64,000 bases of DNA from an uncultured Nitrososphaerota archaeon (GTDB lineage Archaea; Thermoproteota; Nitrososphaeria; Nitrososphaerales; Gagatemarchaeaceae): the NCBI GenBank assembly GCA_963718895.1, contig CAVRAG010000004.1, positions 256,001 to 320,000 on the forward strand. The letters are read 5' to 3'. Each line of letters starts with the position of its first letter. Positions within the stretch are counted from its first letter, which is position 1. A program made the position numbers and the translations under genes. The notes under the pieces were generated by a model, which was not told where the DNA came from, searched no databases, and saw only the letters and a program-made list of their open reading frames with translations. Positions 1,865 to 45,042 of this stretch are shown here, one piece after another.

Positions 1865-2347
1865 ATGGCTTACACCAGCAAGTACTACGCACCCGGCGCA
1901 CCCAACTCCAAGGTCGCCAGGTTCACCACAGGAAAGGCGAACCCCGACTACAACTACTGCATCAACCTGGTCTCCAGGGGAAGGGTCCAGATCAGGCACA
2001 ACGCCCTCGAGGCGGCCCGTGTGGCTGCGAACAAGAAATTGGTCAGCCTTGGAGAAGAGGGGTACCTTCTCACCGTGAAGACATACCCTCATATAATTTT
2101 GAGAGAGAACAAGATGATCGCCACCGCAGGCGCAGACAGGCTCCAGGAGGGTATGAGGAAGGCCTTCGGCAAGCCGATAGGTCTGGCCGCCCGCGTGGAC
2201 ATAGGCAGCACGATACTCGAGCTCCAGGTCAAGACGGCCGACCTCCAGCTGGGCAAGAACGCGCTCCACGCGGCGAAGGCGAAGCTGGGCGTGCTCACGG
2301 ACGTCGTAGCCGTAGAGATCCCGAAGGCCCCCACGCCCGCTGCCTAG
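1865..2347 (+). CDS. rpl10e: 50S ribosomal protein L10e/uL16
   Basis: [43 protein letters not shown] signatures. Confidence 0.97.
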   Translation: MAYTSKYYAPGAPNSKVARFTTGKANPDYNYCINLVSRGRVQIRHNALEAARVAANKKLVSLGEEGYLLTVKTYPHIILRENKMIATAGADRLQEGMRKAFGKPIGLAARVDIGSTILELQVKTADLQLGKNALHAAKAKLGVLTDVVAVEIPKAPTPAA

Positions 2348-2415
2348 CCGCTGACCAGTCGGCATAGTCAAGGCGTTAATCGACAGAGGATTTCAAGCAG
2401 GTAGATGCTGCGCAC

Positions 2416-2534
2416 AGGATTCATCACTCATCCGGGGACTCATCCAGGTACGTCGGTTGTGATAGGATGTCAAGGCGGGAATTCCAGTTGCTCTCCGGGC
2501 TTTTACGTGCGAACCGCGTCGGACCCCGAGGCCC
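2416..2534 (+). repeat. A-C repeat block (diverged copy just downstream of rpl10e)
   Basis: aggattcatc...atccaggtacgtc...ctctccgggcttttacgtgcgaaccgcgtcggaccccgaggccc. Confidence 0.85.
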
Positions 2535-2675
2535 TCTCTCGTCCCACCTCCGTCCCGCGCGACGCTACCAAGAGGCGACTCTGGAACTTCGGCAAGGCAG
2601 AGAGTGTTCCTCTATTCCTACATGAGTTGCCCCGAATAATCTTGGGTTGACGGCTGCCTTCGGAGGTTAGTCTAT

Positions 2676-4289
2676 CTAATCTCTCCTTATCGCCATGTAC
2701 AGGAAACAGGCGAGGGGAACGAGTATCCATAAGACCGCCGCTGCAACGATGGTGGGGATAGTTATCCCGTAAGCTTGGGGCACTATGGAAAAGCTCTGTC
2801 CGGCTAGAACCGGAAGCCCAACGGAAGATATTGTTCCAGTGAGGTATGTGCCTACGAGGCTCACGAATGCAGCGGGATTCACAAACTCCAAACTCACAGA
2901 GAGCTGGTAGAACCCCACAGAGCCGCTCTGAATCCCCAGTACTGACGTAACTAGAGTGGCAATCACGCCTTGGAAGAAGTCGATTACCAGGAACAGTCCC
3001 ACGCCTATTCCAATCAGCGAACCCGAAGACCTCACGAGATGCGAGAGAAGCATCATTGTCCCGATGAAGGCAGCTAGCTCCACCAGAAGACCCGCGGTTG
3101 ACGATATCAGAATCGAAGCATCGATGAACAACCCAGAGAAATGTTGGGCGATTAGGTCCAGCGCGGCCACCGAGGCGAGCGTGGCCACGGATATCCCGGC
3201 GAAGCTCGAGACGTACCTGGAAAGAGACAGTCCCCTTCGCGTGACGGGTTGGGCGAGCACGGACTCGAGGACTCCTGAAACGCGGTCCTTGCCGTATACG
3301 CTGTACACCGTGACTATCGTCAAGAGAGGGATGAAGAGACCGAAGAAGGTCTCGAAGAACGAGACGGCGACCTGATTGTTCAGCGCCCTCGTGAGCGCCG
3401 AATCAGGATACACCTGTCCAAGCGGCAAGTTAGAGGTTGACGTGGCGACGCTCGTGCCGTTCGGATACGCTAGACCTATTGCAACTATGTCGCCGGAAGC
3501 AGCAATAGTTGCTGGAGCTTCAGAGAGATTCCCAGTCAGTTGAGGAGAGGGGAGGACCTGGACGTAGGACCTCATCGTGCCGAGAAGCTGGGCGTTCGAC
3601 TGGTTCAGCTCGGCTGGAATAAGGGTCTCGGCTTGTACGCCTCCGCAGTCCTGCACGAACGCCCCGTTCTGGCACGGGGTCCCGCTGAGGAATCGGTAAT
3701 AGACGAGGTACCCGCTTGGTGAAGAGCCATTGAAACCGGCCCAGGACACCAGAATGTCCCTGGATGATGTATTCGTGAGGCCCGTGACGGTCGCGGGCGT
3801 GGCAGGCGATTGGTAACGGGTCGTGTGGAACACCGAGACGGTCTGACCGGGAGGGGTACTGCTTGAGAATGGCGCGTAATCACCACTAACTATGACGGAA
3901 GAACCGGAGGCCGTCACGACCACGCCGACTGAGTAGCTATTGCTCTCTGGAACGGCTATCGTGAACTGGGTCGAGCCGCTCGAGTTGGTGACCGCTGACC
4001 CAGATACTGTACGGGGCGGAACGGCTGGGATGGTCACGTTCAAGTCGAACTTCACCCCCGCCGCGGGTTGGCCGAACTCGGTCCACGCGAGTGCGATGAA
4101 GTGATATCCGCTCGAGTTATAGTAGACAAAGATCTGGCTGGTGTTGTTGTTGTTCGGGGGGATGGCGTTCGCGGAGAAGCTCCCAAAGGCTGCGAGGCTC
4201 AGGAGCACCATCGCAGCCATCGCAATCAGGACGGACTTGCTGGTCAGAGTCCTTCTAGTGTCGTAGAGGAACGGGCCCAGCATGCTCAC
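2676..4289 (-). CDS. ABC-2 type exporter permease with large extracellular domain
   Basis: N-terminal TM, Ser/Thr-rich ectodomain, GKDRVSGVLESVLAQPVTR motif, C-terminal TMs ending RRD. Confidence 0.85.
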   Translation of the reverse strand: MSMLGPFLYDTRRTLTSKSVLIAMAAMVLLSLAAFGSFSANAIPPNNNNTSQIFVYYNSSGYHFIALAWTEFGQPAAGVKFDLNVTIPAVPPRTVSGSAVTNSSGSTQFTIAVPESNSYSVGVVVTASGSSVIVSGDYAPFSSSTPPGQTVSVFHTTRYQSPATPATVTGLTNTSSRDILVSWAGFNGSSPSGYLVYYRFLSGTPCQNGAFVQDCGGVQAETLIPAELNQSNAQLLGTMRSYVQVLPSPQLTGNLSEAPATIAASGDIVAIGLAYPNGTSVATSTSNLPLGQVYPDSALTRALNNQVAVSFFETFFGLFIPLLTIVTVYSVYGKDRVSGVLESVLAQPVTRRGLSLSRYVSSFAGISVATLASVAALDLIAQHFSGLFIDASILISSTAGLLVELAAFIGTMMLLSHLVRSSGSLIGIGVGLFLVIDFFQGVIATLVTSVLGIQSGSVGFYQLSVSLEFVNPAAFVSLVGTYLTGTISSVGLPVLAGQSFSIVPQAYGITIPTIVAAAVLWILVPLACFLYMAIRRD

Positions 4290-5227
4290 TTCGCCTGCTC
4301 CGGACCACTCGACGCGCCGACCAGCCTGAAGAAGTACTCCTCAAGGTCGGATTTCTGGACCGAGAACTCCCGGAGGAGGTACCCCTTCTTCATCAGCTCA
4401 GCGCTCACTTCCGAGGGATCGGCCTCAAACCCGGAGAGAACGATGCTGGACTCGCTCTCGACGCTGACCGTACCGAGAGTGCGAAGGTAGTCCAAGCCGC
4501 TCTCGTTTAGGTTCGGAATCGTCATTCGCAGGACGCCGTTGCCGCGCTCTATGGCGGCCAGCTCGCCTCTCGTGAGAGTCTTGATTACCTTCCCCCTGTG
4601 GATGAAGATGATTCTGTCGGAGACGGCTTCGATCTCGGAGAGTATGTGAGAGGAGAGGAGGACGGACTTGCTCTGCTTCCTCAGGTCCGTCAGGAGGGCA
4701 CGGACAGACCTTATGCCCTGTGGATCCAGCCCGTTCAGCAACTCATCGAAAAGAAGGTCCTTCGGTTCAGGAAGCAGAGCTAGCGCGAGGGAGAAACGCT
4801 TCTTCATCCCCTGTGAGTAGTCTCGGAGACGTTCCCTTTCGTGTCCCGAAAGCTCGAGGAGCTGGAAGAGCTCTTTGGCTCTTCTTTCGGCGGCGTCTCT
4901 TTCGATCCGGCGGAAACCCGCAAAGTAGAGTAGCAGACTCTCAGCCTTGGCGTTCTGCTCATAGTTCGGAAACTCCGGTACCCAGCCAATCTGCTCGGAG
5001 GCTTTGCGCTTGTCCGCGACTATGTCGTGGCCGTCAATCGTGACCGCTCCCGACGTGGGGAGAGACACGCCGCTCGCGACTCTGATGGTCGTCGTCTTGC
5101 CTGCCCCGTTCAGTCCGACGAAACCCACCACCTCGCCATCTTCCACCGAGAACGATACGTCGTCCAACGCGGAGACTTTCGTCTCCCCCCTCCCGTAGTG
5201 CTTTGTCAGATTCGCGACCCTTATCAT
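4286..5227 (-). CDS. ABC transporter ATP-binding protein
   Basis: Walker A GLNGAGKTT, YSQGM signature, LLFDE, SSH. Confidence 0.95.
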   Translation of the reverse strand: MIRVANLTKHYGRGETKVSALDDVSFSVEDGEVVGFVGLNGAGKTTTIRVASGVSLPTSGAVTIDGHDIVADKRKASEQIGWVPEFPNYEQNAKAESLLLYFAGFRRIERDAAERRAKELFQLLELSGHERERLRDYSQGMKKRFSLALALLPEPKDLLFDELLNGLDPQGIRSVRALLTDLRKQSKSVLLSSHILSEIEAVSDRIIFIHRGKVIKTLTRGELAAIERGNGVLRMTIPNLNESGLDYLRTLGTVSVESESSIVLSGFEADPSEVSAELMKKGYLLREFSVQKSDLEEYFFRLVGASSGPEQAK

Positions 5228-6385: not shown

Positions 6386-6429
6386 TCGTGGCCGTAGAGA
6401 TCCCGAAGGCCCCCACACCCGCTGCTTAG
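6386..6429 (+). pseudogene. Displaced copy of rpl10e 3' end (last 14 codons incl. stop)
   Basis: Matches 2304-2347; 3 differences, all synonymous; downstream flank also duplicated. Confidence 0.9.
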
Positions 6430-6501
6430 CCCCTGCCCGGTCGCCCCAACATCTCAGCCGCTCATCGGCAGGGGATTTCAAGTAGGTGGATTGCTGCGCA
6501 C

Positions 6502-6618
6502 AGGGCTCATCGCGCATCCGGTGACTCATTCCGATACGTCGGTGGTGATAGAATGTCAAGGTAGGTATTCCGATTGCTTTCCGGCTTTTACGTGCGAACC
6601 GAGCCAGGCCCCGAGGCC
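6502..6618 (+). repeat. A-C repeat block (copy of 2416-2534)
   Basis: agggctcatc...ccggcttttacgtgcgaaccgagccaggccccgaggcc. Confidence 0.85.
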
Positions 6619-6707
6619 GAAGCTATTGTGAATCGAGTCTGACGCTCGCTAGCCCGCTCATGAAGAAGGATAGTTCCGTGTAGCCAACGACGCGGAAGCG
6701 CTCGATT

Positions 6708-7115
6708 CTAGCCCACCATCAGAAAGTCGTTCGCTGTCAATATTCTGGTTCCGTCGACCTTCCCAAGAGAGAGCAGGTGTTCATCGCCAGAAACTATGAA
6801 GTCTGCTTTTGCAGCCACAGCGCTCTCCAGAATCACGTTGTCTGCTGGATCTTCCTTGACAACATCCAGTCTTGCGGGAGTATCGACGAAAATCGCGATG
6901 GCTGACACAAGAGCCTTGAATCTCGATTTCTGTTCTTCCTCGAATTCGAACTTTGGATAGTCGAGCACTCTCGAGAGCTCATCGAACTGAGCCTGGGAGA
7001 TGAAGAGCTCAATATCCCCGCTGACTATCTGCGCCAGTATCTTGTGCGGCTTCCCGTTCCACCCTAGGGCAGAGATGAGTATGTTTGTGTCGAGGACTAC
7101 TTTGCTCTTGCCCAC
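6708..7115 (-). CDS. vapC: PIN-domain (VapC-like) toxin
   Basis: VVLDTNILISA, DPADNVILE, IVSGDEHLL. Confidence 0.9.
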   Translation of the reverse strand: MGKSKVVLDTNILISALGWNGKPHKILAQIVSGDIELFISQAQFDELSRVLDYPKFEFEEEQKSRFKALVSAIAIFVDTPARLDVVKEDPADNVILESAVAAKADFIVSGDEHLLSLGKVDGTRILTANDFLMVG

Positions 7116-7357
7116 TTGACGGCCTCGTCGATGTCATCCTGCTTAACCTTGCGTTTCTTCATGTGAGACTGGATGTCTCTGGAGAGAGACTCGAACTCGA
7201 TCTTGACCTTTGGTATGTCTACTCGCTTGAACAGCACACCATCCTTTACCTCTATGGCCACGAATCTGTCGCTGCTGGTGAAGCCTTCGTTCTCTCTTAT
7301 TCGACGAGGGACCACTAATTGCCCCTTGCCTGACATCTTGACCAGTGGCTCCTCCAC
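7097..7357 (-). CDS. AbrB/MazE-family antitoxin
   Basis: VKMSGKGQLVVPRRIRE; overlaps PIN gene. Confidence 0.85.
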   Translation of the reverse strand: MEEPLVKMSGKGQLVVPRRIRENEGFTSSDRFVAIEVKDGVLFKRVDIPKVKIEFESLSRDIQSHMKKRKVKQDDIDEAVKWARAK

Positions 7358-7479
7358 CTTGACCGACTCCCATTGAGTCGTTGAACAGTTGAACTATTTA
7401 ACCGTTCGACCCAATCGGGCGCTACTCTTTCCTGCTCCTGCGAGCCGACGCATCGTCCGGTGAACTCCCGGCTTCCTAC

Positions 7480-7577
7480 GTGCGAACCGCGCCAGGGCCT
7501 CGAGGCCCTCTCCCCCGTCCGAGCTACGTCTTGTCTTAGATGCGGAATGGGCCTGAAGCCGTGCAAAGGGTTCATTG
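7480..7577 (+). repeat. C-to-A imperfect hairpin (attC-like), copy 1
   Basis: GTGCGAAC...GGCCTCGAGGCCC...GGGCCTGAAGCC...GTTCATTG. Confidence 0.8.
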
Positions 7578-7690
7578 AGCCTCCGCCGGTCCACTTTATC
7601 CAGGTTCGTCAGCTATTGTAAGTGAGCCGGGGTGGGTATTCCAATTGCTCTCCGGGCTTCTACTTGCGAACCGCGCCGGGCCCCGAGGCC
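7568..7690 (+). repeat. A-C repeat block
   Basis: gggttcattgagcctccgccggtccac...tgcgaaccgcgccgggccccgaggcc. Confidence 0.9.
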
Positions 7691-7707
7691 GCTCGAATCG
7701 ACCGCTT

Positions 7708-8898
7708 TCACGGACTTAGGGCGAACGAGGTGGCGTTTACCATGAAGCAGTAGGCGTACGGAGACGCCGTGTCGTCGGGCACGTTGAACATGCAGTTGGC
7801 GCTCGCCGGCTCTCCTTGCTGGCCGACGTATGGGTACCTCACAGTTATGGTGTAGCTCGTAGCGCTCCACGGCCCTGAGGAGGGGACTTGGGCGGTGCAG
7901 CCAGAGGCCGTGGCGGCTTGAGCGGCGCAGTTGAAGATGAACGCCTGGGAGAACCCGGAGGTCACGCACGGAACGGGATTGTTGTTCTCGGCACACCCTC
8001 CACCGTTGTCCAGGAAGCTCCCCACCGTCGGCAGGTTGCCGGACCGGACGACCGAGAAGTGCAGCAGGGTCACCTGGCCCAATTCGTCGCCGGCGACCAG
8101 AGTGTAGCTCGCGGGCAGGGCTGAGTGGAGCGAGTTGTAGAAGCCGGTGCCGTTCGCGGCGTAGATGGAGTCCTGGAAGGAAATCCGCGTTGTGAAGGTC
8201 CCCTTGGCGAGGGTCTCCGGGGTCTGGGTGTACGTGCACACCCCCGAGTTGCACACGGGCGGCGGAGGGGTGCCTGGGACGTCGTAGTAGCCGGCGTAGG
8301 TCCCGTTGTCGCTGCCCGGGAGCAGCGAGTAGCTTGTGATGTTGTGCAGGCCGTAGGATTGGTTGCCGATGAACACGAGATCGACCAGGCATTCGACCGT
8401 GGCCCACACAAACAGCGGCTTGCCCGCCGCGGAGATGTTGTTCAGCCCATAGGTCCCCGTAAAGACGCCTACGCCGACTGGATAGTACAGCTTGTTGGTG
8501 GCGTCGCCCAGGTCGCATGGTCCTGCGGACAGACCATCGATCGCCCAGGCGCTTGAGGCGGTCAGATTGTTCGCCGTCGGCAATGTGTTCAGGATTGAGG
8601 CGGTGATATCGATGGCGTCCTGGCTCGGTATCGTCGTCGCGTTGACCGACAGCGTCAGTTTCAGGCCCAACGACGAATTTGCCGTTTCCGCGCTGGCCGT
8701 GACCATCTCGGCGCCTTGGGAGGATGAGGCGGTGGTAGCCCCCGAAGAAGATGTGGAGCTCGAAGCGCTCGTATCGCTCGAGGTCGCGGACTGAGAGGAG
8801 AGTACAGCATATGTGATTCCGGCCAAGGCAGCCATTGCGACGATGACCACGGTCGCGAGGGTGGCTGTCGTCCCGATGGCGCTTCGCCGACTCACCAA
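7708..8898 (-). CDS. Membrane-anchored surface protein (Ser/Thr linker, Ig-like domain, Cys-rich C-terminal domain)
   Basis: N-terminal TM; YTLVAGDELGQ motif shared with 21141, 39526, 58481; C-terminal domain shared with 58481. Confidence 0.75.
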   Translation of the reverse strand: MVSRRSAIGTTATLATVVIVAMAALAGITYAVLSSQSATSSDTSASSSTSSSGATTASSSQGAEMVTASAETANSSLGLKLTLSVNATTIPSQDAIDITASILNTLPTANNLTASSAWAIDGLSAGPCDLGDATNKLYYPVGVGVFTGTYGLNNISAAGKPLFVWATVECLVDLVFIGNQSYGLHNITSYSLLPGSDNGTYAGYYDVPGTPPPPVCNSGVCTYTQTPETLAKGTFTTRISFQDSIYAANGTGFYNSLHSALPASYTLVAGDELGQVTLLHFSVVRSGNLPTVGSFLDNGGGCAENNNPVPCVTSGFSQAFIFNCAAQAATASGCTAQVPSSGPWSATSYTITVRYPYVGQQGEPASANCMFNVPDDTASPYAYCFMVNATSFALSP

Positions 8899-8933
8899 AC
8901 ATAGGTCACGCGATTCGCGAAGAGGCTCCCCTC

Positions 8934-8954
8934 GTGATTAATAGTTTTGTCCGA
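8934..8954 (-). promoter_or_regulatory. Motif B (conserved promoter-like/cassette-start element)
   Basis: tcggacaaaactattaatcac on minus strand, ~36 bp before gene start. Confidence 0.75.
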
Positions 8955-9026
8955 GTACACCCGAAGTCCCGGTCTTGGGCGGCTACTCATCGATGTTTAA
9001 ATAGGTATTACGCGTAATACTTTTCG

Positions 9027-9263
9027 ATGAAACGGGAGGAGACTACGGTTACCCGGAAATTCCAGACCACGATCCCAAAAGCGATAAGGAAGAACCTGGA
9101 AGTCAAGGCCGGTCAGAAGGTGACCTGGCATATCGTGAAGAGCCTCGTAGTCGTTGATACGCACAAGAGGGTGAAGGACCCGGTGGCGTTCCTCACATCT
9201 CAGACGAAACTCAACCTGGACGCCACAGCACTCGTCAGGGAGACCAGAGAAGAACTCACTTGA
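9027..9263 (+). CDS. AbrB/MazE-family antitoxin
   Basis: VTRKFQTTIPKAIRK. Confidence 0.85.
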   Translation: MKREETTVTRKFQTTIPKAIRKNLEVKAGQKVTWHIVKSLVVVDTHKRVKDPVAFLTSQTKLNLDATALVRETREELT

Positions 9264-9688
9264 AGTACCTGGACACCAACGTCATAGTCTACGCGATAGA
9301 GAACCATCCAAAGTACGGAGAGAGGTGCAAGAGAATCCTCGAAGACGTTGAGAGCGGGAAGCTGAAAGTCTCTTGTTCGATGTTGGTCCTGGTGGAACTG
9401 ATAAACGTCCTGAAGAAGCTGAACCGAGTTCTCTCGAAGCAAAAGAGGAAGGAGCTCGAACTTGAGGACAATGTTGATGCGGTGTTGTCGTTGGGAATTA
9501 CCTGGATTGACTTGGACTTTCTCATAGTAGAGAGAGCGTCCACTTACTCTTTCGATATCAACGGCGTGGACTACATCCACGCCGCGTCCATGGAGGTCAA
9601 CTCGATAACTGAAGTTCTCTCGGCGGATGCAGATTTTGACAAGGTTCCGATGGTCAAACGCCTGGATCCGTTGGGCTATGAAGGCTAG
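9260..9688 (+). CDS. vapC: PIN-domain (VapC-like) toxin
   Basis: YLDTNVIVY, DYIHAAS, SADADFD. Confidence 0.9.
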   Translation: MKYLDTNVIVYAIENHPKYGERCKRILEDVESGKLKVSCSMLVLVELINVLKKLNRVLSKQKRKELELEDNVDAVLSLGITWIDLDFLIVERASTYSFDINGVDYIHAASMEVNSITEVLSADADFDKVPMVKRLDPLGYEG

Positions 9689-10247: not shown

Positions 10248-10270
10248 GTGATTAATAGTTATGTCCGAAC
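10248..10270 (-). promoter_or_regulatory. Motif B
   Basis: gttcggacataactattaatcac. Confidence 0.75.
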
Positions 10271-10300
10271 ACCGAGGGAAAGGAAAATCTGTTCTTTCGT

Positions 10301-10420
10301 CGGCTTTTACGTGCGAACCGCACCAGGTCCCGAGGCCGGAGCCAAGGCGCACTTCTTTCACAGCCCAACGTGTGGATGAAATGGCCCGGCGGAGGCGCGA
10401 TGAACCCTAGACGTGGCACG
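10301..10420 (+). repeat. Motif C plus linker plus inverted motif A
   Basis: cggcttttacgtgcgaaccgcaccaggtcccgaggcc...ccggcggaggcgcgatgaaccc; homologous to 41831-41937. Confidence 0.85.
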
Positions 10421-11813: not shown

Positions 11814-12575
11814 ATGGAGAAAAGGACGCAGCCTGAAGACAGGGCGGCAGAACTCCACCTTCAACTGGCCAGTGTAGATAGAAGGCGCATAATGTCAGAG
11901 TTGGAGAAAGAGAACCTGAACCTCAGCGAGCTAGCTCGGCGGGTCGGCGTGAGCGCGACGGAGGCCTTCAGACAGGTTCAGAGGATGACAGAGGCCAGAG
12001 TCCTCGAGAGGATGTCCGACGGGAAGTACAGACTAACGCCATACGCGAAACTCGCACTCGAGATGTCATCGCCCTTGGACTTCGTCTCCAAGTATAGAGA
12101 CGGCTTTATGCAGAATGATGCCTTCCTCCTCCCTAAAGAGTATCGAGCAAGGCTCGGGGAGCTGCTCGGCGGCGAGCGGGTAACGGACGACACCGAAGTA
12201 TACAACAGGGCCGCAGAGATGCAAAAAGGCGCGGAGGGGAGCATATACGCGACTGTGATGGGCAACCAGCTCCTCCTCGACATAACCATGCAACGCCTCC
12301 GGCAGGGAGTGAAGGTCAGGTGGCTCATGCATGAGAGCTTCCTCGACAAGGCCAGGTCAATCCTCCGCTCCGCCGAGCAGCGTCCCGAGACGAGATCGGC
12401 ATCGAGTTTCCCTGTTCACATGGTCGTGACAGAAAAGATGGCCGGCGTCGTTTTCCTTCCAAACAGGAGTGGCGCGTCCAGCTGGGCTTTGTTCGGCAGT
12501 GACTCTTCCTTCCTCAAATGGGCGGGCGACCTGTTCATGCATGAGTGGCAGAAGGCAAAGATTTGGTATCCCTGA
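11814..12575 (+). CDS. ArsR-type HTH plus DUF1724/TrmB-like transcriptional regulator
   Basis: LASVDRRRIM HTH; SDSSFLKWAGDLF..W C-terminus; paralog of 15300..16049. Confidence 0.75.
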   Translation: MEKRTQPEDRAAELHLQLASVDRRRIMSELEKENLNLSELARRVGVSATEAFRQVQRMTEARVLERMSDGKYRLTPYAKLALEMSSPLDFVSKYRDGFMQNDAFLLPKEYRARLGELLGGERVTDDTEVYNRAAEMQKGAEGSIYATVMGNQLLLDITMQRLRQGVKVRWLMHESFLDKARSILRSAEQRPETRSASSFPVHMVVTEKMAGVVFLPNRSGASSWALFGSDSSFLKWAGDLFMHEWQKAKIWYP

Positions 12576-12633
12576 ACGCGAGAGTACATGTGTCGCGTAT
12601 ACGCTCTCCATCACGGTAAGACATCCCGAGGTC

Positions 12634-12649
12634 AGGCGTAATGAACCCC
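12634..12649 (-). repeat. Inverted motif A abutting rpl10e fragment
   Basis: aggcgtaatgaacccc. Confidence 0.7.
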
Positions 12650-12836
12650 AACACGGGAACTTATATCCTCCGCGAGAACAAGATGATCGCCACCGCAGGC
12701 GCAGACAGGCTCCAGGAGGGGATGAGGAAGGCCTTCGGCAAGCCTATAGGTCTGGCCGCCCGTGTGGACATCGGCTCCACGATACTCGAGCTCCAGGTCA
12801 AGACGGCGGACCTCCAGCTGGGCAATGAACGCTCTC
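12650..12836 (+). pseudogene. Displaced internal fragment of rpl10e (ILRENKM...DLQLG)
   Basis: ~53 codons identical in protein to the resident gene, with synonymous DNA changes; a frameshift follows. Confidence 0.92.
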
Positions 12837-12922
12837 ACACTGCTTCGAAGAGACGATGAACGAGCTTGGTCGCCTCGATTTTGCTCACAAGATGTATATG
12901 TCTGGGACACCCAGACACTACC

Positions 12923-13513
12923 ATGTCATCGATGCGTGACTCGCAGTTTCGCAGGCCTGACATCGGCACGATTGGGGCAAGCCTGCTCGTCATGGTGGGC
13001 TTCGCCGTCTACCTTGCCGGACGCTACTTGGGGTCACTGCCTGGGTACCAGTACAACGGGCCGATACCCCCTGATATCGCCTACTCCATCATGGGCTTCT
13101 ATTCCGCCATCGTCGGCATCGTAATCTTGACTGCCAGGTTCCTCTGGCAGGTGTTCGCGCTCCCGGCCCGGGGGAGGATTGCGCTGCTGGCAGGATGGTC
13201 GCTTGTGATAGCAGGGCTGGTCGCCATGCCCACTGGCGCTCTTCAGGAGACCACCTGCTCCAACTGCTACTTCAACCTGAACGGCTCGTTTGTAATCTTC
13301 TGGGCCGGGGCCGTCGCCCTTCCTGCCGGCCTGACCGTAGTGGCATCCGTCCTCCTCGCGTCGCAGTCGCGGCCTCCCGGCCACAAGCAGCTTGTCCGTA
13401 TCGCGCTCGCCGCGGTGGTGATCATCCTGGCGGGTGTCACTCTCTGGACTGCCTTCGAAGCCTATTCCGCATATCTGAGCTACACCAGCTTACGTTTCAA
13501 CCTAGCGCTCTAG
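12923..13513 (+). CDS. Multi-pass membrane protein
   Basis: About 5 hydrophobic segments, CSNC loop; start inferred. Confidence 0.6.
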   Translation: MSSMRDSQFRRPDIGTIGASLLVMVGFAVYLAGRYLGSLPGYQYNGPIPPDIAYSIMGFYSAIVGIVILTARFLWQVFALPARGRIALLAGWSLVIAGLVAMPTGALQETTCSNCYFNLNGSFVIFWAGAVALPAGLTVVASVLLASQSRPPGHKQLVRIALAAVVIILAGVTLWTAFEAYSAYLSYTSLRFNLAL

Positions 13514-13550
13514 ACCGGACGACCCGAAGACGGCACCCAAGTACAGAGGT

Positions 13551-33783: not shown

Positions 33784-33797
33784 TTGGTGAGATGTAG

Positions 33798-34469
33798 TTG
33801 CAGATAGGACAACCCGACATAGTCGCGTTCTCCTCGGTGGCTCTCCTTGTCTCGACCTTCGGCGTGGTCGTCCGACGGAGCTTCGCGGGCTGGCTGAGCG
33901 CCTACCGGTACCAGTCGGTGGTCCTCGCCGGCTCGACCGGGCTCATCGCCTACGCGACGGGCGTCTGGGAGATATACGCGGCGGCCGTCCTCACCCTGCT
34001 GATCAAGGCCATCGTGATTCCGAGGCTGCTGGTCCGGGTCACAGAGGGGGTGAATGACGAGTTCAAGATCGAAGCGAACCCGTACGTGAGTATAAGGCTC
34101 TCCGTCTTGGTCTCGGCCCTCTTGGTCGCCCTCTCCTACGCCCTCGTCCAGGAGACCCTGCCGTCAGCGGGGCTGGACGCCCTGGCCGCGGCCTACCTGC
34201 CAATCTCGCTCTCCCTCTTCTTCATCGGGCTCTTCGTCATGGTCAGCAGGAGGATGGCACTCAACCAGGTGGTCGGCCTCCTCATCATCGAGAACGGCCT
34301 CTTCCTCTTCACCACGGCGCTGACGAGCGGCGTCTCCCTCATAATCGAGGTCGGGATCCTGGCCGACATCCTGGTCGGCGTGATGATCTCCGTTCTGCTC
34401 CTAATCAGGATGACCCGGACCTACGACACTCTCGACATCGGCCGTCTGGAGAAGCTCAAGGATGATTGA
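33798..34469 (+). CDS. hyfE: HyfE membrane subunit
   Basis: KAIVIP, QVVGLLIIENG; position in operon. Confidence 0.85.
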   Translation: MQIGQPDIVAFSSVALLVSTFGVVVRRSFAGWLSAYRYQSVVLAGSTGLIAYATGVWEIYAAAVLTLLIKAIVIPRLLVRVTEGVNDEFKIEANPYVSIRLSVLVSALLVALSYALVQETLPSAGLDALAAAYLPISLSLFFIGLFVMVSRRMALNQVVGLLIIENGLFLFTTALTSGVSLIIEVGILADILVGVMISVLLLIRMTRTYDTLDIGRLEKLKDD

Positions 34470-34475
34470 TCGGTC

Positions 34476-36029
34476 GTGTGGTGGTCGAACTTGCTGACCG
34501 TCGCTGGTCTGGTCCTCCCGTCGGGCTGGGGGGCCGTCCTTCTCACCATCATCTTGACCCCTGCCGTCTCGGCCGTGCTGGTGACCCTCACGCACAGGAA
34601 GAGGTGGGCCGAGGCCATCACGCTCGCCTCCGTAATGCTGGTGGGCCTCCAGGCCCTAGGGTTGGTAGCGGGCGTAATCGTTGGCAGGCAGGTCTCCGCC
34701 TTCGGCGAGATCCTGTACCTCGACGCGTTCGGCGCCCTGATCCTGATTCCGATAGCAGGCGTCGGATTCGTCGCCGCCCTCTACTCCATCAACTACATGG
34801 GGAGGCAGTACGACCGCGGCATCGTCGACGACCGGCACATAGTCAGGTACTACCAGGGATTCAACGGGTTCATGCTCACCATGCTCGTCGTCCCGCTTGC
34901 GAACGACATGGGGCTCATGTGGGTCGCAATCGAGGCGACCACTCTCGTCTCCGTCTTCATGATAATGCTCTACACGACCGAGGGGGCCATCGAGGCCGCC
35001 TGGAAGTACCTGACGATCGCCACGGTGGGGCTGTCCCTCGCCCTGCTCGGCATAGTCCTCTTCTCGTACGCGAACACCTCGGCATCGCCCTCGGCCTCAG
35101 GGATGGACTGGACGAGCATGGTCGCCAACTCGGCACTCCTCAACCCGGGGATCGTCAAGGTTGCCTATGTCTTCGTCCTTGTGGGCCTTGGAACGAAGGC
35201 CGGCCTCGCCCCTATGCACACGTGGCTCCCGGACGCCCACGGAGAGGCCCCGACCCCCGTCAGCGCGCTGCTCTCAGGCGTCCTACTGAACTGCGCCATC
35301 TACGGCGTGCTGAGGTTCTATATCGTAGCGTCCGGCACGCTGGGACCGGCATTCCCAGGCCAGCTGCTCATCCTGCTCGGCCTGCTTTCCATGGGCATAG
35401 CGGCGGCATCCATCTACTTCCAGAAAGACATGAAGAGGATGCTAGCGTACTCGAGTGTCGAGCACATGGGGATAGTCTCACTGGCGGTGGGCTTTGGAGG
35501 CTTTCTGGGGCTCTTCGCCGCCCTGCTCCACATAATCAACCACGCCATTGCGAAGCCCCTGATGTTCTTCGCGAGCGGCACGGTGAGCCAGAGGTACGGG
35601 ACCAAGGTGATGGCAGAAATCAAGGGGATCATCAGGGTCATGCCGGTCACGGGCGCCATGCTCCTCCTCGGAGGCCTGGCCATAGCCGGGATGCCCCCGT
35701 TCAACGTATTCCTGAGCGAGTTCCTCGTGATGACGGATGGATTCGGCACGGGACAGTTCTTGATCACCCCGATAATGATCATCCTCCTCGTGGTCGTCTT
35801 CGCGGGGTTCTTGCGGCACCTCGTGCCTATGGTGTTCGGGAACCCGGCCACCGGGAAGGCGGTCCCCTCCGAGAAGGGTTTGGGAACCGACGGCATGGGG
35901 GTGCTCGCGGTGGCCCCGATGCTAATCCTGGCGTCGCTGGTGATAGTCCTCGGATTCTTTGTCCCCCAGCCTCTGCAGACCCTCATCCGCGACGCGACGC
36001 AGGTGTTCAGCCAGGGGGCGGCATCCTAG
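34476..36029 (+). CDS. hyfF: HyfF antiporter-like subunit
   Basis: WVAIEATT, EAAWKY, HTWLPDAH.EAP, KRMLAYSS.EH. Confidence 0.88.
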   Translation: MWWSNLLTVAGLVLPSGWGAVLLTIILTPAVSAVLVTLTHRKRWAEAITLASVMLVGLQALGLVAGVIVGRQVSAFGEILYLDAFGALILIPIAGVGFVAALYSINYMGRQYDRGIVDDRHIVRYYQGFNGFMLTMLVVPLANDMGLMWVAIEATTLVSVFMIMLYTTEGAIEAAWKYLTIATVGLSLALLGIVLFSYANTSASPSASGMDWTSMVANSALLNPGIVKVAYVFVLVGLGTKAGLAPMHTWLPDAHGEAPTPVSALLSGVLLNCAIYGVLRFYIVASGTLGPAFPGQLLILLGLLSMGIAAASIYFQKDMKRMLAYSSVEHMGIVSLAVGFGGFLGLFAALLHIINHAIAKPLMFFASGTVSQRYGTKVMAEIKGIIRVMPVTGAMLLLGGLAIAGMPPFNVFLSEFLVMTDGFGTGQFLITPIMIILLVVVFAGFLRHLVPMVFGNPATGKAVPSEKGLGTDGMGVLAVAPMLILASLVIVLGFFVPQPLQTLIRDATQVFSQGAAS

Positions 36030-37696
36030 TGGCGGGGCAGACAGGGGTCGCTGGCTGCGAGGCGAAGCTGCGCGCCCGATTCACGATGGGGACGAATTCC
36101 ATTCGGCTGCTAAACGGAAACGAACTTCACTTCAGGATTAGTAGGAGGGAAGAGCTCCCGGACGTGTGCGCCTACGTGTACGATGAACTGAAAGGCGTCC
36201 TGGCGACGGTCGTCTGTTCCGACGAGAGGCGCCTCAGTGGAGAGTTCGTCCTCAGGTACGCCTTCGGCATCGGCGGTGAGGACCTCTTCATCGTGGTCGA
36301 GGCGGGGGTCGAGCAGGGTCACCCCGACTCGCCTTCCTCCTTCCCGAGCGTGGCGACCCGTCTGCCGGCCGCGACCCTCTATGAGCGGGAGGTTAGGGAC
36401 ATGTTCGGCCTTGTGCCAGAGGGCCATCCGGACGTGAGGCCGATGGTGCTTCACGAACAATGGCCCCACCGCGCGCATCCCCTGAGGAAGGACTTCGAGA
36501 TGGGCACCAAAGTAGGCAGGGTCACGGACCGTCCATACGAGTTCCTCAGGGTGGACGGAGAGGGCGTCTCCGAGATCCCGGTAGGCCCAGTCCACGCGGG
36601 GATAATCGAGCCCGGCCACTTCAGGTTCAGCACTCTCGGCGACACCATAGTCAACCTGGAGACGCGACTCTACTACACGCACAGGGGGGTCGAGAAGCTA
36701 TCGGAGTCGATGAAGCTGGACCATATCCTCCTTGTCAGCGAGCGAATATCCGGCGACGAGGCGGTGGCGAACTCGACGGCCTACTGCCAGGCCATCGAGA
36801 AGATCGCTGGAGTGACCCCACCACGAAGGGCGCTCCAGATTAGGGCCGTCTGCGCAGAGATGGAACGCATGTACAACCACATCGGCACGGTTGCAGGACT
36901 CTCGACCGATGTGGGGTTCGCCTACGGCTCCGCCAGGCTCAGCATCTTGAAGGAGAGGATGATGCGGCTGAACGAAGAGGTTGCGGGGAGCCGGCTCCTC
37001 TTCGGCGTCAACAGGCTGGGTGGGGTTGGCGTAGACCTGACCGAGGAGAAGGCCGGGCGAGTGCTTGCCGAGGTCGACGCAGTGCTGGGAGATTTCAAGC
37101 GTGTGGTGTCCGTCCTGAGGAACGATTCGTCAGTCATGGACAGGTTGAGGGGAACAGGGGCGATATCCTCCGCCGTCGCCCTGGAGTTGGGTCTGGTGGG
37201 GGTCGCTGCGAGAGCGTCGGGCGTGGACATCGACGTGAGGAGAGACCATCCCTACGGCGCCTACCGCTCTCTTCGTGTCGACTCGCACCACGACACCGGG
37301 GAGCGCGCGGCCCACTACGAGACCGAGATGAAGAGGAGAAGGGGAGACGTGCTTGCGCGCTTTGAGGTGAGGGTCGAGGAGGTCGACAACTCGGCAGCGG
37401 TCGTGAGAGAAGTGCTGCAGGACCTCGACGGTGGGCGGGAGCTAGTGGTCCCTCTAGCGAAGGACGCGCTCAAACCCTACGCCCACGCACTGGGCTATGC
37501 GGAGTCCCACAGGGGCCAGACCGTCCACTGGGCGATGATCGGGGAAGACCGGGACTCGCTCTTCCGCTACAAGGTGAGGACGGCGTCGTTCGCCAACTGG
37601 CCGGCGATAGAGACAGCTGTGCTCAATGACATAGTCGCTGATTTCCCTCTCGTGAACAAGAGCTTGGACCTGTCCTACGCAGGGAACGACCTGTGA
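36029..37696 (+). CDS. hyfG: HyfG/EhrL large subunit (NuoC+D-like) lacking NiFe cysteines
   Basis: YEREVRDMFG, GPVHAGIIEPGHFRF, ERISGD (no CxxC), NKSLDLSYAGNDL (no DPC..C). Confidence 0.85.
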   Translation: MAGQTGVAGCEAKLRARFTMGTNSIRLLNGNELHFRISRREELPDVCAYVYDELKGVLATVVCSDERRLSGEFVLRYAFGIGGEDLFIVVEAGVEQGHPDSPSSFPSVATRLPAATLYEREVRDMFGLVPEGHPDVRPMVLHEQWPHRAHPLRKDFEMGTKVGRVTDRPYEFLRVDGEGVSEIPVGPVHAGIIEPGHFRFSTLGDTIVNLETRLYYTHRGVEKLSESMKLDHILLVSERISGDEAVANSTAYCQAIEKIAGVTPPRRALQIRAVCAEMERMYNHIGTVAGLSTDVGFAYGSARLSILKERMMRLNEEVAGSRLLFGVNRLGGVGVDLTEEKAGRVLAEVDAVLGDFKRVVSVLRNDSSVMDRLRGTGAISSAVALELGLVGVAARASGVDIDVRRDHPYGAYRSLRVDSHHDTGERAAHYETEMKRRRGDVLARFEVRVEEVDNSAAVVREVLQDLDGGRELVVPLAKDALKPYAHALGYAESHRGQTVHWAMIGEDRDSLFRYKVRTASFANWPAIETAVLNDIVADFPLVNKSLDLSYAGNDL

Positions 37697-38514
37697 TTGA
37701 CATGGACAAGTCTAGAGACATCCTCAGCAATGCGGTCGAGACCGACAGGGACGTACTCAACGGGGAAAGGTCGGTCTCAGGCTTTCGCGGAGACGTGTCG
37801 CTGGTGCCGCAGTCACCTGGCTTTGTAGCAGACCTTGAACTGTACGGGCAGCTGAAGAAAGTCTGCGCACCAAATGCGATTGCGGAGATTCCGGGCGAAC
37901 TCGGCCCCCAGCTTACACTCGACAAGGGCAGGTGCATAATGTGTGGGATGTGCAAGCAGGTCGCGCCCCAGCTAATCGTTGTCTCTGAGCACTTCGCCGC
38001 GCCCGTGAGAAGACAAAGAGAGCTCGTCGTCGCACAGATACCGGAGCCTCCTGACGGCGGCACCCGGCTCCAGCCCGATGAGATAGGGAGACAGCTGAAG
38101 GAGAAGGTGGTGCAGGCGCTCGGGAGATCGCTGGCGGTAAGGGAGGTAGATGCGGGCTCCTGCAATGGGTGCGAGGTCGAGGTCTCTGCGCTTAACAACC
38201 CGGTCTACGATGTCGAGAGATTCGGCGTGCACTTCGTAGCCTCTCCGCGCCATGCGGACGTCCTGTTGGTCACCGGGGTAGGTTCCAGGAACATGGAACT
38301 CGCCCTGAAGAGGGCGTTCGAGGCTACGCCGGACCCGAAGGTCGTTGTCGCTGCGGGAGCCTGCGCCTGTTCGGGAGGGTTGTTTGGGGATACGTATGCC
38401 ACAACAGGTGGGGTCGGAGGGATTGTGCCAGTTGATGTGTTCGTCCCCGGGTGCCCTCCGAGGCCTGAAGCGTTGCTGTATGGGCTACTCCTCGCGGTCG
38501 ATAGAATCCAGTAG
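37693..38514 (+). CDS. hyfI: HyfI/EhrS small subunit (NuoB-like) fused to N-terminal ferredoxin-like region
   Basis: CIMCGMC, GSCNGCEVE, SPRHAD, GACACSGG, PGCPP. Confidence 0.88.
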   Translation: MIDMDKSRDILSNAVETDRDVLNGERSVSGFRGDVSLVPQSPGFVADLELYGQLKKVCAPNAIAEIPGELGPQLTLDKGRCIMCGMCKQVAPQLIVVSEHFAAPVRRQRELVVAQIPEPPDGGTRLQPDEIGRQLKEKVVQALGRSLAVREVDAGSCNGCEVEVSALNNPVYDVERFGVHFVASPRHADVLLVTGVGSRNMELALKRAFEATPDPKVVVAAGACACSGGLFGDTYATTGGVGGIVPVDVFVPGCPPRPEALLYGLLLAVDRIQ

Positions 38515-38701
38515 CGCGTCTGGATTACGCGAGCATCCCAAGAAGGTTCGCCAAAAAAATCGTTCAAGAAAGAGTGGCGGATATGAATACCCCATTTCAC
38601 TTTGTCCAAGATTCTGTCTCAATTCTTACTCGGCTACCAATTCTAATGCCAAGCCGACCCACTTCAAACTCCCGGATTGATGGCGGATTCCAATGAACTC
38701 T

Positions 38702-38742
38702 TCCCGGCTTCTACGTGCGAACCGCGCCGAGGCCCGAGGCCC
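38702..38742 (+). repeat. Motif C
   Basis: tcccggcttctacgtgcgaaccgcgccgaggcccgaggccc. Confidence 0.85.
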
Positions 38743-40665: not shown

Positions 40666-40785
40666 CGCATTCCACGCTGGAGAGAAGATGATTCAGTTGG
40701 GATATAATCCCTCGGTCGTTGTCCAACCGCCGTCGGATGTTCTGGTCTTTGATTCTACAGGACAAGAGTCGTTGTCTAAGGTGAA

Positions 40786-40809
40786 GGGGTTCATTGCGCC
40801 TCCGCCGGG
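40786..40809 (+). repeat. Motif A immediately after a minus-strand stop
   Basis: ggggttcattgcgcctccgccggg. Confidence 0.85.
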
Positions 40810-40815
40810 GCATCT

Positions 40816-41785: not shown

Positions 41786-41813
41786 TCCAAGTCGTGTTTG
41801 AGAAGGTGATTCC

Positions 41814-41937
41814 TGATTAATAGTTTTGTCCGAACCGCGGCCGGCCCCGAGGCCGGAGCCAAGCCGTGCTCTTTCAACCCCAACATTATGATGAAATGCC
41901 CGGGCGGAGGTGCGATTCACCCTATGCGCATGGCACG
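41814..41937. repeat. Hybrid B|C site plus linker plus inverted motif A
   Basis: tgattaatagttttgtccgaac|cgcggccggccccgaggcc; remainder matches 10338-10420. Confidence 0.85.
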
Positions 41938-43313: not shown

Positions 43314-43389
43314 CCGGTCGAGAAGGCGCATTGAACCCAACACGAAAACTCATACCCTAGGGAGAACAAGATGATCGTCACCGCCGGCG
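43314..43389 (+). pseudogene. Inverted motif A joined to decayed rpl10e fragment
   Basis: aaggcgcattgaaccc|aacacgaaaactcataccctagggagaacaagatgatcgtcaccgccggcg. Confidence 0.75.
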
Positions 43390-44051: not shown

Positions 44052-44155
44052 ACCGTGACTATAGTTATAGCCATAGCCATAGATAAATCTTGAGGAGGAA
44101 GCTCCTCACGCGACTCTTCAGAGCCAGGGTTCGTCTGGCCTGTTTACTGGCTACC

Positions 44156-44189
44156 CCAGGCGGAGGCGCTATGAACCCTATACATGGCA
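44156..44189 (-). repeat. Inverted motif A
   Basis: ccaggcggaggcgctatgaaccctatacatggca. Confidence 0.75.
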
Positions 44190-44190
44190 T

Positions 44191-44622
44191 CTACTTTTCG
44201 CTATCTGACTCCTTCATTCTTATCCAGGTACGCTTGACTTCGGTGAAGTGAGGGTCGTCGGTGACGCATGAAACGCGGAGCCGCTTCGCGGTCGCCATGA
44301 TTAGGGAATCAGCCATCGGAATCCTCAGCCTGTGGCTGATCCTAGCGCCTTCCGCGGCAATCTCGGCGTCGACATCCATGATATCGAACTCATTCTCCAT
44401 GGTCGTGACCCTCACATCAGCGACCGACATGTCTTCGGACTCAATCGTCTGCTTGTAGACCTCGTAGATGCTGATCGAGGAGACGTAGGTCGTATCTGCC
44501 CGGTCGTAGATGGCTCTCAGTTCTCTTACGGTTCGCCGATCTTTGGATCTGAAGATGGCCCAGAAGTACCTTGTCTCGAAGAGCACACTGCCCTCATCCC
44601 TCTTCTTGCCGCATGGCGTCAA
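44191..44622 (-). CDS. vapC: PIN-domain (VapC-like) toxin
   Basis: LFETRYF, MADSLIMATA, TDDPHF; true start probably ~44586. Confidence 0.85.
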   Translation of the reverse strand: MTPCGKKRDEGSVLFETRYFWAIFRSKDRRTVRELRAIYDRADTTYVSSISIYEVYKQTIESEDMSVADVRVTTMENEFDIMDVDAEIAAEGARISHRLRIPMADSLIMATAKRLRVSCVTDDPHFTEVKRTWIRMKESDSEK

Positions 44623-44818
44623 GGCGATCGAAGGCTTCTTTCACGTTCCCCTTGCTCGTCCCCGCCAAATCAAATACTGACGGGATTTTTGTGAATACCA
44701 CCTTGCCCTCCACAGCCTCAACCTTCAGCCTTGTTCCTTCCTCAATCCCCAGCTTCCTTCTCACGTCCACGGGGATCGTCGTCTGGCCTCTTCTCGTGAC
44801 CACGACCTCTTGAGCCAT
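44594..44818 (-). CDS. AbrB/MazE-family antitoxin
   Basis: VTRRGQTTIPVDVRRKLGIEEG. Confidence 0.9.
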   Translation of the reverse strand: MAQEVVVTRRGQTTIPVDVRRKLGIEEGTRLKVEAVEGKVVFTKIPSVFDLAGTSKGNVKEAFDRLDAMRQEEG

Positions 44819-44919
44819 GCATTCTGACATGGATTCCTACCTTAAAATGATTTCCTACCTATCCGTTAATCCTACTCCTGGTTTTTCTTGGCGTCTTCTC
44901 GATATGTTAGGGTGTCCCC

Positions 44920-45042
44920 CCGGCGGAGGCTCGATGAACCCCAACACGAGATCATACCTTCAGCGAGAACAAGATGATCGCCACGCAGGCGCAGACAGGC
45001 TCCCGGTTTTTTTACATGCGAACCGCGCCTTGCCCGGAGGCC
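44920..45042 (+). pseudogene. Inverted motif A plus rpl10e fragment plus motif C (collapsed unit)
   Basis: ccggcggaggctcgatgaacccc|aacacg...gagaacaagatgatcgccacgcaggcgcagacaggctcc|cggtttttttacatgcgaaccgcg. Confidence 0.85.

Follow-up and report, generated by a model that had tools for sequence, protein, structure and literature searches.

Phage 21 and e14 of Escherichia coli supply icd, an essential-pathway gene, with an alternative 3′ end, and the replaced end differs mainly at silent sites. In tDNA islands, which tyrosine integrases make at tRNA and tmRNA genes, according to the Islander principle, the target gene is split and regenerated by island sequence, and the regenerated target and a displaced fragment lie at the island ends (PMC4383910). 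Tycheposons of Prochlorococcus carry, by definition, an inward-facing integrase and often a replication module (10.1101/2020.12.28.424599). Elements of Thaumarchaeota integrate into 3′-distal regions of protein genes, the reading frame being reconstituted by the element, and tandem integrations occur (Krupovic et al. 2019, PMC6563490). Here we describe an island that begins directly behind rpl10e, the gene of ribosomal protein L10e, in an uncultured archaeon of the Gagatemarchaeaceae (Nitrososphaerota). The island lies in a stretch of 64,000 nucleotides (nt), referred to as the window (contig CAVRAG010000004.1; G000:C4:256001-320000), of a 3.13-Mb bin with 11 contigs (assembly GCA_963718895.1, designated G000). 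Other G-numbers denote related genomes, and L-numbers denote fetched stretches, some of which are metagenome contigs (e.g. L095). Gene models in the window were made with our own codon-score script and are uncurated.

The resident rpl10e gene is a mosaic and old 3′ parts are displaced

The original prediction for this DNA held that incoming segments carry the 3′ half of rpl10e, restore the gene on integration and push the previous 3′ half downstream, repeatedly. We compared positions 1701-2700 with the window by blastn and recovered the four displaced rpl10e pieces it had reported (A to D; Table 1), all on the strand of the intact gene and all 3′ of it; blastn of the whole assembly found no additional pieces. 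Piece A (6386-6618) corresponds to 2304-2533 at 81.6% identity, comprising 44 nt of the rpl10e end and 186 nt of downstream sequence. It derives from the far 3′ end and downstream DNA, a different part of rpl10e than that found in B, C and D. The match of B (12674-12836) is to 2105-2266 (94.5%), that of C (43359-43389) to 2102-2132 and that of D (44959-45006) to 2099-2147; D is fused to a piece (45010-45042) that equals 2501-2533.

Read in frame from position 12665, B differs from the resident gene by 12 nt in nine of 53 codons without a single amino acid difference, and then carries a 1-nt insertion. When 12 substitutions were placed at random 100,000 times, not one set was silent. The three upstream codons of B (ATC CTC CGC) have the form found in the resident genes of G011 and G001, to which the sequence from 12665 is 98% and 96% identical, respectively, over 56 nt; the changes att>atc, ttg>ctc and aga>cgc are thus true rpl10e sequence. 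A has three silent changes in 14 codons, besides one mismatch at the edge of homology. Every codon change listed for B and A in the original prediction was present on re-alignment, and its statement that they are silent, in B up to the terminal frameshift, held. C has one replacement and D a 1-nt deletion, both pieces being too short for a silent-site test. An independent case was found in G013, where a complete displaced 3′ half that includes the stop codon is situated 3 kb past the resident gene. The proportions of synonymous (pS) and non-synonymous (pN) differences from its resident gene are 0.59 and 0.078; the homology between the two extends over 224 nt and ends near the stop codon. Because the divergence is biased to silent sites, the copies must have diverged while each belonged to a working gene, which agrees with the earlier claim that the fragments had been parts of functional rpl10e alleles. 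Since then the old parts have been displaced and are decaying.

The resident gene is itself a mosaic, with a 5′ half nearest to G001 and a 3′ part nearest to G011. Codons 2-77 are 88.2% identical to G001 vs 82.9% to G011, and codons 108-160 are 79.2% identical to G001 vs 87.4% to G011. Of the sites at which G000 matches just one of these two relatives, 21 side with G001 and 7 with G011 before base 232, against 9 and 18 beyond it (Fisher p=0.0029). The discordance between the two halves that the original prediction implied was therefore found: the gene was made whole with a 3′ part of foreign origin.

Entry into rpl10e takes place at a fixed point. Clear homology puts the start of B, C and D, and likewise that of the fragments displaced in G007 and G002, at codon ~78 of rpl10e; an alternative reading of the joint puts it perhaps at codon 72 with a gap of 9-12 nt. 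The protein motif at the entry site is invariant in all 17 rpl10e genes of the family that were compared and is the most conserved motif of the gene. The same ~40-60 nt of non-rpl10e sequence, a repeat that we call T, precede B, C, D and the G007 and G002 fragments alike. The joint of G013 has a degenerate form of T, read by eye.

Relatives show what the locus looks like without the island. The ancestral gene order in the genus is a Cas1-like gene, p143, two p171 genes, rpl10e, dph2 and rrp4. Thirteen related loci had both rpl10e and dph2 on the fetched stretch, and in nine of them (G012, G009, G022, G017, G018, G008, G023, G021 and G020) rpl10e abuts dph2, i.e. the site is empty. The remaining four loci are filled with 1.8 kb (G010), 4.4 kb (G013), 7.7 kb (G011) and 10.3 kb (G007). 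L095, a metagenome contig of a close strain (rpl10e protein 94% identical), has a 7.5-kb island, and the right flank of the window (50439-51830) matches L095 at 7976-9365 as well as G011.

The locus thus resembles tDNA islands in the regenerated target with displaced same-orientation copies, of which G013 is the clean two-copy case, and in a reusable site that leads to tandem arrays (PMC4383910); empty target sites in relatives are a further likeness. It differs in its target: instead of a tRNA or tmRNA gene, the interior of a ribosomal-protein gene is used, ~85 codons of which are replaced, and a companion array exists at the 3′ end of the 23S rRNA gene (see below). Moreover, the island has no integrase, and a piece of the 23S gene stands before the displaced fragment. 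No tRNA gene was found in the 64-kb window, and Rfam gave no match at gathering score, only sub-threshold snoRNA noise at 2300-2750.

R and T repeats, cassettes and the 23S rRNA array

The original prediction had missed the nature of the island, a cassette array with two families of repeats, and that of the joint sequence, which is the 3′ end of 23S rRNA. The first family, R, has the core TACGTGCGAACCGCGCCGGGCCCCGAGGCC and longer arms in subfamilies. With nhmmer, 15 copies were found in the window, all on the + strand between 2471 and 45047, and elsewhere in the G000 genome only one weak copy at an uninformative place (C8:907985). The R core (≤3 mismatches) occurred in five of 41 genomes (seven copies in G000, 22 in G002, two each in G011 and G001, one in G007) and R also in 16 metagenome contigs. 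A pattern search of public genome contigs gave 20 stretches, ten from this genus and ten chance matches in GC-rich bacteria. In G011, G001, G007 and G002 an R copy follows rpl10e at a distance of 115-150 nt, and the search for the core found none in the nine empty-site genomes, so R belongs to the incoming DNA and not to the ancestral site.

R copies bound cassettes. Two PIN/antitoxin cassettes (6708-7357 and 16322-17148) are set in an identical frame of arm L, R, genes, R and arm a. L095 shares two R-bounded cassettes with the window (L095 6045-6910 with 6583-7447, 91.6%; L095 7300-7957 with 23133-23790, 92.1%), and their order and neighbours differ between the two. Cassettes have been exchanged, and the comparison shows that those bounded by R within the island are gained, lost and reordered. 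In G002, R doublets 120 nt apart form arrays at 0.6-1.5-kb spacing. A compact T-fragment-R unit like that at 44918-45047 is also present in G002:C3, so such a unit may be inherited or transferred whole.

T has 12 copies in the window, in both orientations, as detected by nhmmer with a profile of window copies, plus the copy before C, which was recognized by pattern match. Genome-wide there were 55 nhmmer matches, 43 of them on contig C8, where 40 like-oriented copies occupy C8:1461044-1567997. This array of ~107 kb holds ~40 cassettes, each with a T copy behind it, at a T spacing of 0.4-6 kb and begins at the 3′ end of the 23S gene (C8:1568000-1572001, Rfam). The last T copy of the array is the final ~22 nt of 23S and the next ~55 nt; T is therefore the 23S end. 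The 5′ flank of 23S is complementary to T, so that T represents the 3′ strand of the rRNA processing stem. In the window, the stretch 10361-10423 matches the 23S 3′ end and its flank with 92% identity over 63 nt. It follows that the repeat before the displaced rpl10e pieces is itself the displaced end of another essential gene.

In the 56 kb of the C8 array that were examined, 74 open reading frames (ORFs) were called, many of them paired, with ~75-90 and 125-155 codons, the size of toxin-antitoxin pairs. G007, a complete genome of one 2.25-Mb contig with 33 T copies, also has, at the same locus, a 59-kb run of T copies just downstream of its 23S gene, and the far flank of this array is syntenic with G000. 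A 21-base T core (≤2 mismatches) was detected in 22 of the 41 genomes, namely G000, 20 of 22 other members of the genus, one of two other genera of the family and none of 16 genomes of other families; a reversed control gave no match anywhere. The 23S array has the form that would be expected if the process of restoring and displacing seen at rpl10e had taken place there dozens of times.

Some further observations concern the surroundings of the repeats. The 23S gene of G007 contains a group I intron (Rfam RF00028, 54.6 bits; L112 7780-8155, G007:C1). A motif, GATTAATAGTTATGTCCGAAC, recurs beside R and T copies (window 10250-10275, L046 ~10125 and G002 loci) and 83-140 nt downstream of T in five of the 40 C8 copies; on the opposite strand it resembles an archaeal TATA-type promoter facing the neighbouring cassette gene. 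Another repeat family of ~85-105 nt with 77-82% identity is found at 21852-21957, 24985-25067 and 58467-58617. It is inverted between the island and a site 8 kb past dph2, and it is also present in G011 (L037 18668-18756).

Table 1. Features of the rpl10e locus and positions of candidate recombinase genes (coordinates in the window unless a contig is named)
Position	Strand	Feature	Basis or remark
1-1287	+	Cas1-family protein, C-terminal 428 codons of ~896 amino acids (aa), outside the island	full gene G000:C4:254597-257287 = L067:10-2700
1865-2347	+	resident rpl10e, intact, 160 aa	Pfam Ribosomal_L16 (L16/L10e), E 3e-23
2087-2147	+	entry site in rpl10e, codons ~75-95	alignments; displaced copies begin at 2096-2105
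2348-50438	.	inserted island, 48.1 kb between rpl10e and right flank	comparison with G011 and metagenome contig L095
2405-2450	-	putative degenerate inverted T between rpl10e stop and first R	by eye; not found by nhmmer
2471-2534	+	R, first copy, ~125 nt past the rpl10e stop	nhmmer E 1.6e-17
6386-6624	+	fragment A: 44 nt from the very end of an older rpl10e copy, followed by downstream spacer and R	blastn, nhmmer
7448-7691	+	double unit: R, arm a, inverted T (7529-7592), arm L, R; no cargo within	blastn, nhmmer
10278-10420	+	R, then forward T (10383-10420)	nhmmer
12626-12674	+	T copy directly before fragment B	nhmmer, alignment
12665-12836	+	fragment B: rpl10e codons 78-130, other allele, then frameshift	in-frame alignment
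13510-13569	-	inverted T copy	nhmmer
16065-16227	+	inverted T (16065-16124), arm L, R (16161-16227): left border of PIN/antitoxin cassette	nhmmer
17142-17278	+	R (17142-17194), arm a, inverted T (17215-17278): right border of the PIN/antitoxin cassette begun at 16065-16227	nhmmer
22303-22451	+	weak R, arm a, inverted T	nhmmer
23062-23127	+	R copy, left border of cassette 23133-23790 (common to L095)	nhmmer
23778-23810	+	R copy, short	nhmmer
28023-28176	+	inverted T, arm L, R	nhmmer
28829-28866	+	R copy, weak	nhmmer
38682-38742	+	R copy	nhmmer
40749-40811	-	inverted T copy	nhmmer
41793-41937	+	R, then degenerate forward T (arm b)	blastn, nhmmer
43324-43389	+	T copy (43324-43358) joined to fragment C (43359-43389)	blastn, alignment, pattern
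44155-44203	+	forward T between two PIN/antitoxin pairs	nhmmer
44918-45047	+	compact unit: T 44918-44969, fragment D 44959-45006, R 44995-45047	blastn, nhmmer
50439-52989	+	conserved right flank: GNAT, F420H2-dependent reductase, dph2	Pfam, synteny
G000:C8:1190965-1192236		~450-aa tyrosine recombinase	1.4 kb from T
G015:C25		~450-aa tyrosine recombinase	0.25 kb from T
G011:C218		~450-aa tyrosine recombinase	0.7 kb from T
G021:C3		~450-aa tyrosine recombinase	1.0 kb from T, then five more T copies
G001:C2		~450-aa tyrosine recombinase	0.8 kb from T
G002:C25		~450-aa tyrosine recombinase	5.3 kb from T, R copies between

How the island may have been built

The silent divergence of the displaced copies, the mosaic gene, the empty sites and the shared start in G007, G013 and G002 support the predicted process in which incoming DNA restores the gene and pushes the old 3′ half downstream. 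We think it probable that the island was built by repeated site-specific insertion into rpl10e, and that machinery linked to T uses rpl10e as a second landing site. Insertion would take place at codons ~75-78, inside the most conserved motif. The incoming segment would come with a 3′ part of rpl10e of its own, the ~150 nt that follow it and R. The essential gene would thereby stay whole, as the mosaic resident gene shows, and the previous 3′ part would be moved downstream to decay by frameshift and deletion, as fragments A to D show. On its far side the incoming segment would end in T, and the displaced fragments are indeed T-rpl10e joints. T is the repeat of a genus-wide cassette system with its main array at the 23S 3′ end. 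The machinery would normally act at T, where it would renew the 23S end and push the previous one away, and a T-acting site-specific recombinase may also use the rpl10e site. If this site recombined with a downstream T, the resulting circle would carry the T-joint, rpl10e codons 78-160, R and cargo. Its re-integration at the rpl10e of another cell would leave an intact mosaic gene on the left and T with the old 3′ half on the right, as observed.

In six places, a gene for a ~450-aa tyrosine recombinase of one family directly precedes T on the same strand, at a distance of 0.25-5.3 kb (Table 1). This association was noted post hoc; it points to the family as the best candidate enzyme, which would be encoded outside the island.

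Several findings weigh against insertion by T-linked machinery. No recombinase was detected inside the island by Pfam on 50 called window ORFs or by PHROGs on ten unknown ORFs. PF00589 has four matches in the genome, none of them in the window and the nearest on the contig 157 kb away, and PF16795 and PF00239 have none in the genome. G007 combines a T array and an rpl10e island with a T-rpl10e joint, but at E≤1e-10 the candidate family is not represented in it, and its only PF00589 match is 92 kb from rpl10e. T copies occur in both orientations in the rpl10e island, unlike in the 23S array. The joints are without 9-12 nt relative to the gene, which a clean crossover does not predict. A T-like core in rpl10e at the joint was searched for by eye only and was not established, a short ACCCT..ATA resemblance being all that was seen. 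The T-rpl10e joint pattern had no match in metagenome contigs, and no circular or free form was found. Finally, it is uncertain how many events the four fragments represent, since G002 has the compact T-fragment-R unit too; they need not equal four independent ones.

A wider form of site-specific insertion at T and rpl10e may be put forward tentatively. An undescribed system of Gagatemarchaeum-like archaea would capture cassettes at the 23S 3′ end and its processing-stem flank, so that dozens of small integrase-less cassettes would be stacked downstream of the rRNA operon by a recombinase acting in trans. rpl10e would be a second entry, at which only cassettes with a spare gene half survive.

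The R repeats suggest a comparison with integrons. In this case R (and T elsewhere) would be the recombination sites of cassettes, the recombinase would be encoded elsewhere, cassettes would move singly, and the rpl10e pieces would be passengers, copied when sites on both sides of the 3′ end of the gene were used, instead of marks left by the integration of whole elements. The 15 direct R copies that punctuate the island, the identical frame of two PIN/antitoxin cassettes, the different order of shared cassettes in L095, the R-doublet arrays of G002, the many two-gene cassettes of toxin-antitoxin size in the 23S array, and the recombinase that heads a run of six T copies in G021 all fit such a platform. 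Integrons, including archaeal ones (Ghaly et al. 2022, PMC9668308), likewise have long arrays of cassettes with like-oriented repeats and many toxin-antitoxin-sized pairs, and they include integrase-less arrays (clusters of attC sites lacking integrases, CALIN-like) and a cassette order that differs between strains. They differ from this locus in the hairpin of their recombination sites and in IntI (PMC9668308). Folding of 14 T units on both strands (28 folds) gave z values of -1.8 to +1.5 and six DNA folds of R/L units gave +0.1 to +2.0, no better than shuffled sequences. RNAalifold of the R/L units and of the G002 doublets gave no convincing covariation (double changes in 3/19 and 3/32 pairs). 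Thus an attC-like hairpin is not formed, and no IntI-type gene is adjacent. The repeat here copies the end of a cellular gene, which is the signature of a duplicated attachment site and not of attC. R is confined to five of 41 genomes, and the mosaic resident gene and the fixed T-rpl10e joint are not explained by such a platform alone. We regard it as unlikely in this form, although it overlaps with the site-specific reading more than it excludes it.

It is improbable that homologous recombination anchored on rpl10e, with local duplications, deletions and illegitimate joins making the fragments and repeats, could account for the island without any dedicated machinery. Homologous exchange replaces DNA and leaves no old 3′ half behind. 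The displaced copies of several species share their start and the preceding T (G000, G007 and G002, and in degenerate form G013), and the T 21-mer is free of mismatches across species whose rpl10e DNA is only 65-75% identical. These points stand against the origin of the replaced 3′ part from a close relative (87% identity to G011), the many short homologies offered by R and T, the variable fragment ends as expected under random deletion, and the possible reading of D as a deletion between two GCTCC.GG stretches, each of which such recombination would explain.

A protein encoded upstream of rpl10e raised a further possibility, namely that a Cas1-family integrase inserts cassettes next to rpl10e as a 'leader' and duplicates a repeat each time. 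Pfam gave no match for this ~896-aa protein, and its homologues are named Cas1 or have PF01867. In an AlphaFold2 (AF2) model with a predicted local distance difference test score (pLDDT) of 83, the C-terminal ~340 residues take on the Cas1/casposase fold. The top Foldseek matches were Cas1 4n06_B (E 2e-9, probability 1.00, template modelling (TM) score (target) 0.61) and casposase 6opm (E 4e-8). E702, H784, D798 and D801 are (near-)invariant across 56 sequences. The modelled fold and the conserved E, H, D and D residues place the protein in the Cas1 family. Whole or in fragments, the gene occurs 0.5-9.5 kb before rpl10e in the fetched loci of G005, G012, G009, G022, G017, G023 and G020, and 1.7 kb upstream in G001 by coordinates; in G013 the gene is degraded, and in G021 a fragment lies ~5.8 kb away on the dph2 side. 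R and the T core also have the length of CRISPR repeats. Nevertheless, we rejected the gene as the integrase of the island. It stands beside empty sites in G012, G009, G022 and G017, and searches did not detect it in G007, G002, G010 and G018, which have T arrays or islands (in G007 an island and 33 T copies; G002 has 22 R copies), so that it probably does not build the island. With a length of 160-224 nt and a divergence of 8-20%, nearly all of it silent, the duplicated parts of rpl10e are not fresh target-site duplications, and in both respects they differ from the short ones of casposons. In contrast to casposons, the Cas1-like gene lies outside the island, 5′ of rpl10e in conserved synteny, and no PolB was detected among ten ORFs scanned in the 20 kb upstream. 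A role of this protein in insertion is very improbable.

We also searched four public runs, which may include the source sample. Their Logan contigs are short, with a depth of 2-5; one covers 12435-12610 and one 12775-12870, both without differences from the window, and none bridges 12634-12674, where T joins B. That strain-chimeric read joining in a metagenome bin of 80.5% completeness and 5.4% contamination produced the locus is hardly credible, since a like architecture is present in the independent assemblies of G007, G013, G002, G011 and L095, and the window is free of N within a 389-kb contig.

Cargo, neighbouring genes and consequences for the genus

The island carries an ABC transporter, six PIN-domain genes with small partners, and winged-helix (helix-turn-helix) regulators, as assigned by Pfam, together with a CAAX protease, an amine oxidase, TatC-like proteins and Ser/Thr-rich or Gly-rich secreted or membrane proteins. 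At 31270-38514 there is a cluster for an Mrp/Mbh-like membrane complex with NuoL/M/H/K-like subunits and a NuoB-like small subunit. This cluster forms a ~10-kb cassette between two R copies, and its G+C content (62-64%) is above that of the rest of the island. PHROGs assigned none of ten unknown island proteins to a family, and all-vs-all blastp revealed no recombinase-like family common to several of them. The small insertions in G013 and G007 encode two large proteins, which look secreted and had no meaningful match in a PDB sequence search.

Upstream of rpl10e, two tandem p171 paralogues of ~140-170 aa always lie directly before the gene in relatives (L035:18850-19911, L080:15745-16701), as one fused ORF in G007. 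G000 has an inversion, with respect to rpl10e, of the block that runs from p142 and the Cas1-like gene to p143 and p171. On the question of whether p171 is a homing endonuclease, the five p171 ORFs (of nine ORFs scanned) gave a single borderline LAGLIDADG_3 match, at 22.6 bits with the cut-off at 22.5, and one match with E 0.28. N-terminal to its Cas1 fold, the ~896-aa protein has four conserved Cys pairs besides domains of alpha/beta and winged-helix-like type. It has 88 homologues in Nitrososphaerales at E≤1e-3, often with two to four copies per genome, and no CRISPR or PolB association was seen here. In G012, two copies of the Cas1-like gene with p143 lie upstream of rpl10e (L081, i.e. G012:C1:130000-149999; 1417-4586 and 16632-19795) and form a 3.2-kb inverted repeat of 74% identity around ~12 kb of DNA.

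Phage 21 and e14 are each a single prophage with its own integrase, unlike the multi-event array described here. Tycheposons resemble the present islands in that flexible islands are remodelled at few conserved RNA genes as elements repeatedly integrate and excise, with partial target copies and niche cargo (10.1101/2020.12.28.424599); they differ in that the units here are mostly cassettes of 0.6-6 kb without integrase or replication module, have other targets and reside in an archaeal host. The elements of Krupovic et al. (PMC6563490) belong to the same phylum and also use protein genes whose ORF is repaired. The 14 cases listed in the text of that report, as distinct from its supplementary target list, name EF-2, dph, purD and others, not rpl10e or 23S rRNA. 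Their attachment sites are short (13 bp in one example), whereas here 160-250 nt of coding sequence are replaced. The parts of the literature that we consulted do not describe these arrays and mention no archaeal integration at rpl10e or at the 23S 3′ end, although supplementary target lists may hold such cases. The Gagatemarchaeaceae genome paper does not mention mobile elements. As far as our searches reach, the process is of a known kind, and what is new is its targets (an internal site of an essential ribosomal-protein gene and the 23S 3′ end), its scale and the format of cassettes that lack an integrase.

Taken together, an essential ribosomal-protein gene has repeatedly been rebuilt from foreign halves, and core translation genes are mosaic at the level of strains, which matters for marker-gene phylogenies that use L10e. 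If the machinery were identified, it would offer a natural site-specific landing system for archaea without genetic tools and a new point of comparison for the evolution of integrons and tRNA-gene islands. In this genus of acid-soil archaea, most flexible genes (toxin-antitoxin pairs, surface proteins and regulators) seem to be lined up behind 23S 3′-end copies. If cassettes are indeed captured at the flank of 23S and at rpl10e, they would constitute a third gene-cassette platform beside integrons and tDNA islands, and parts of two core translation genes would be continually exchanged between strains.

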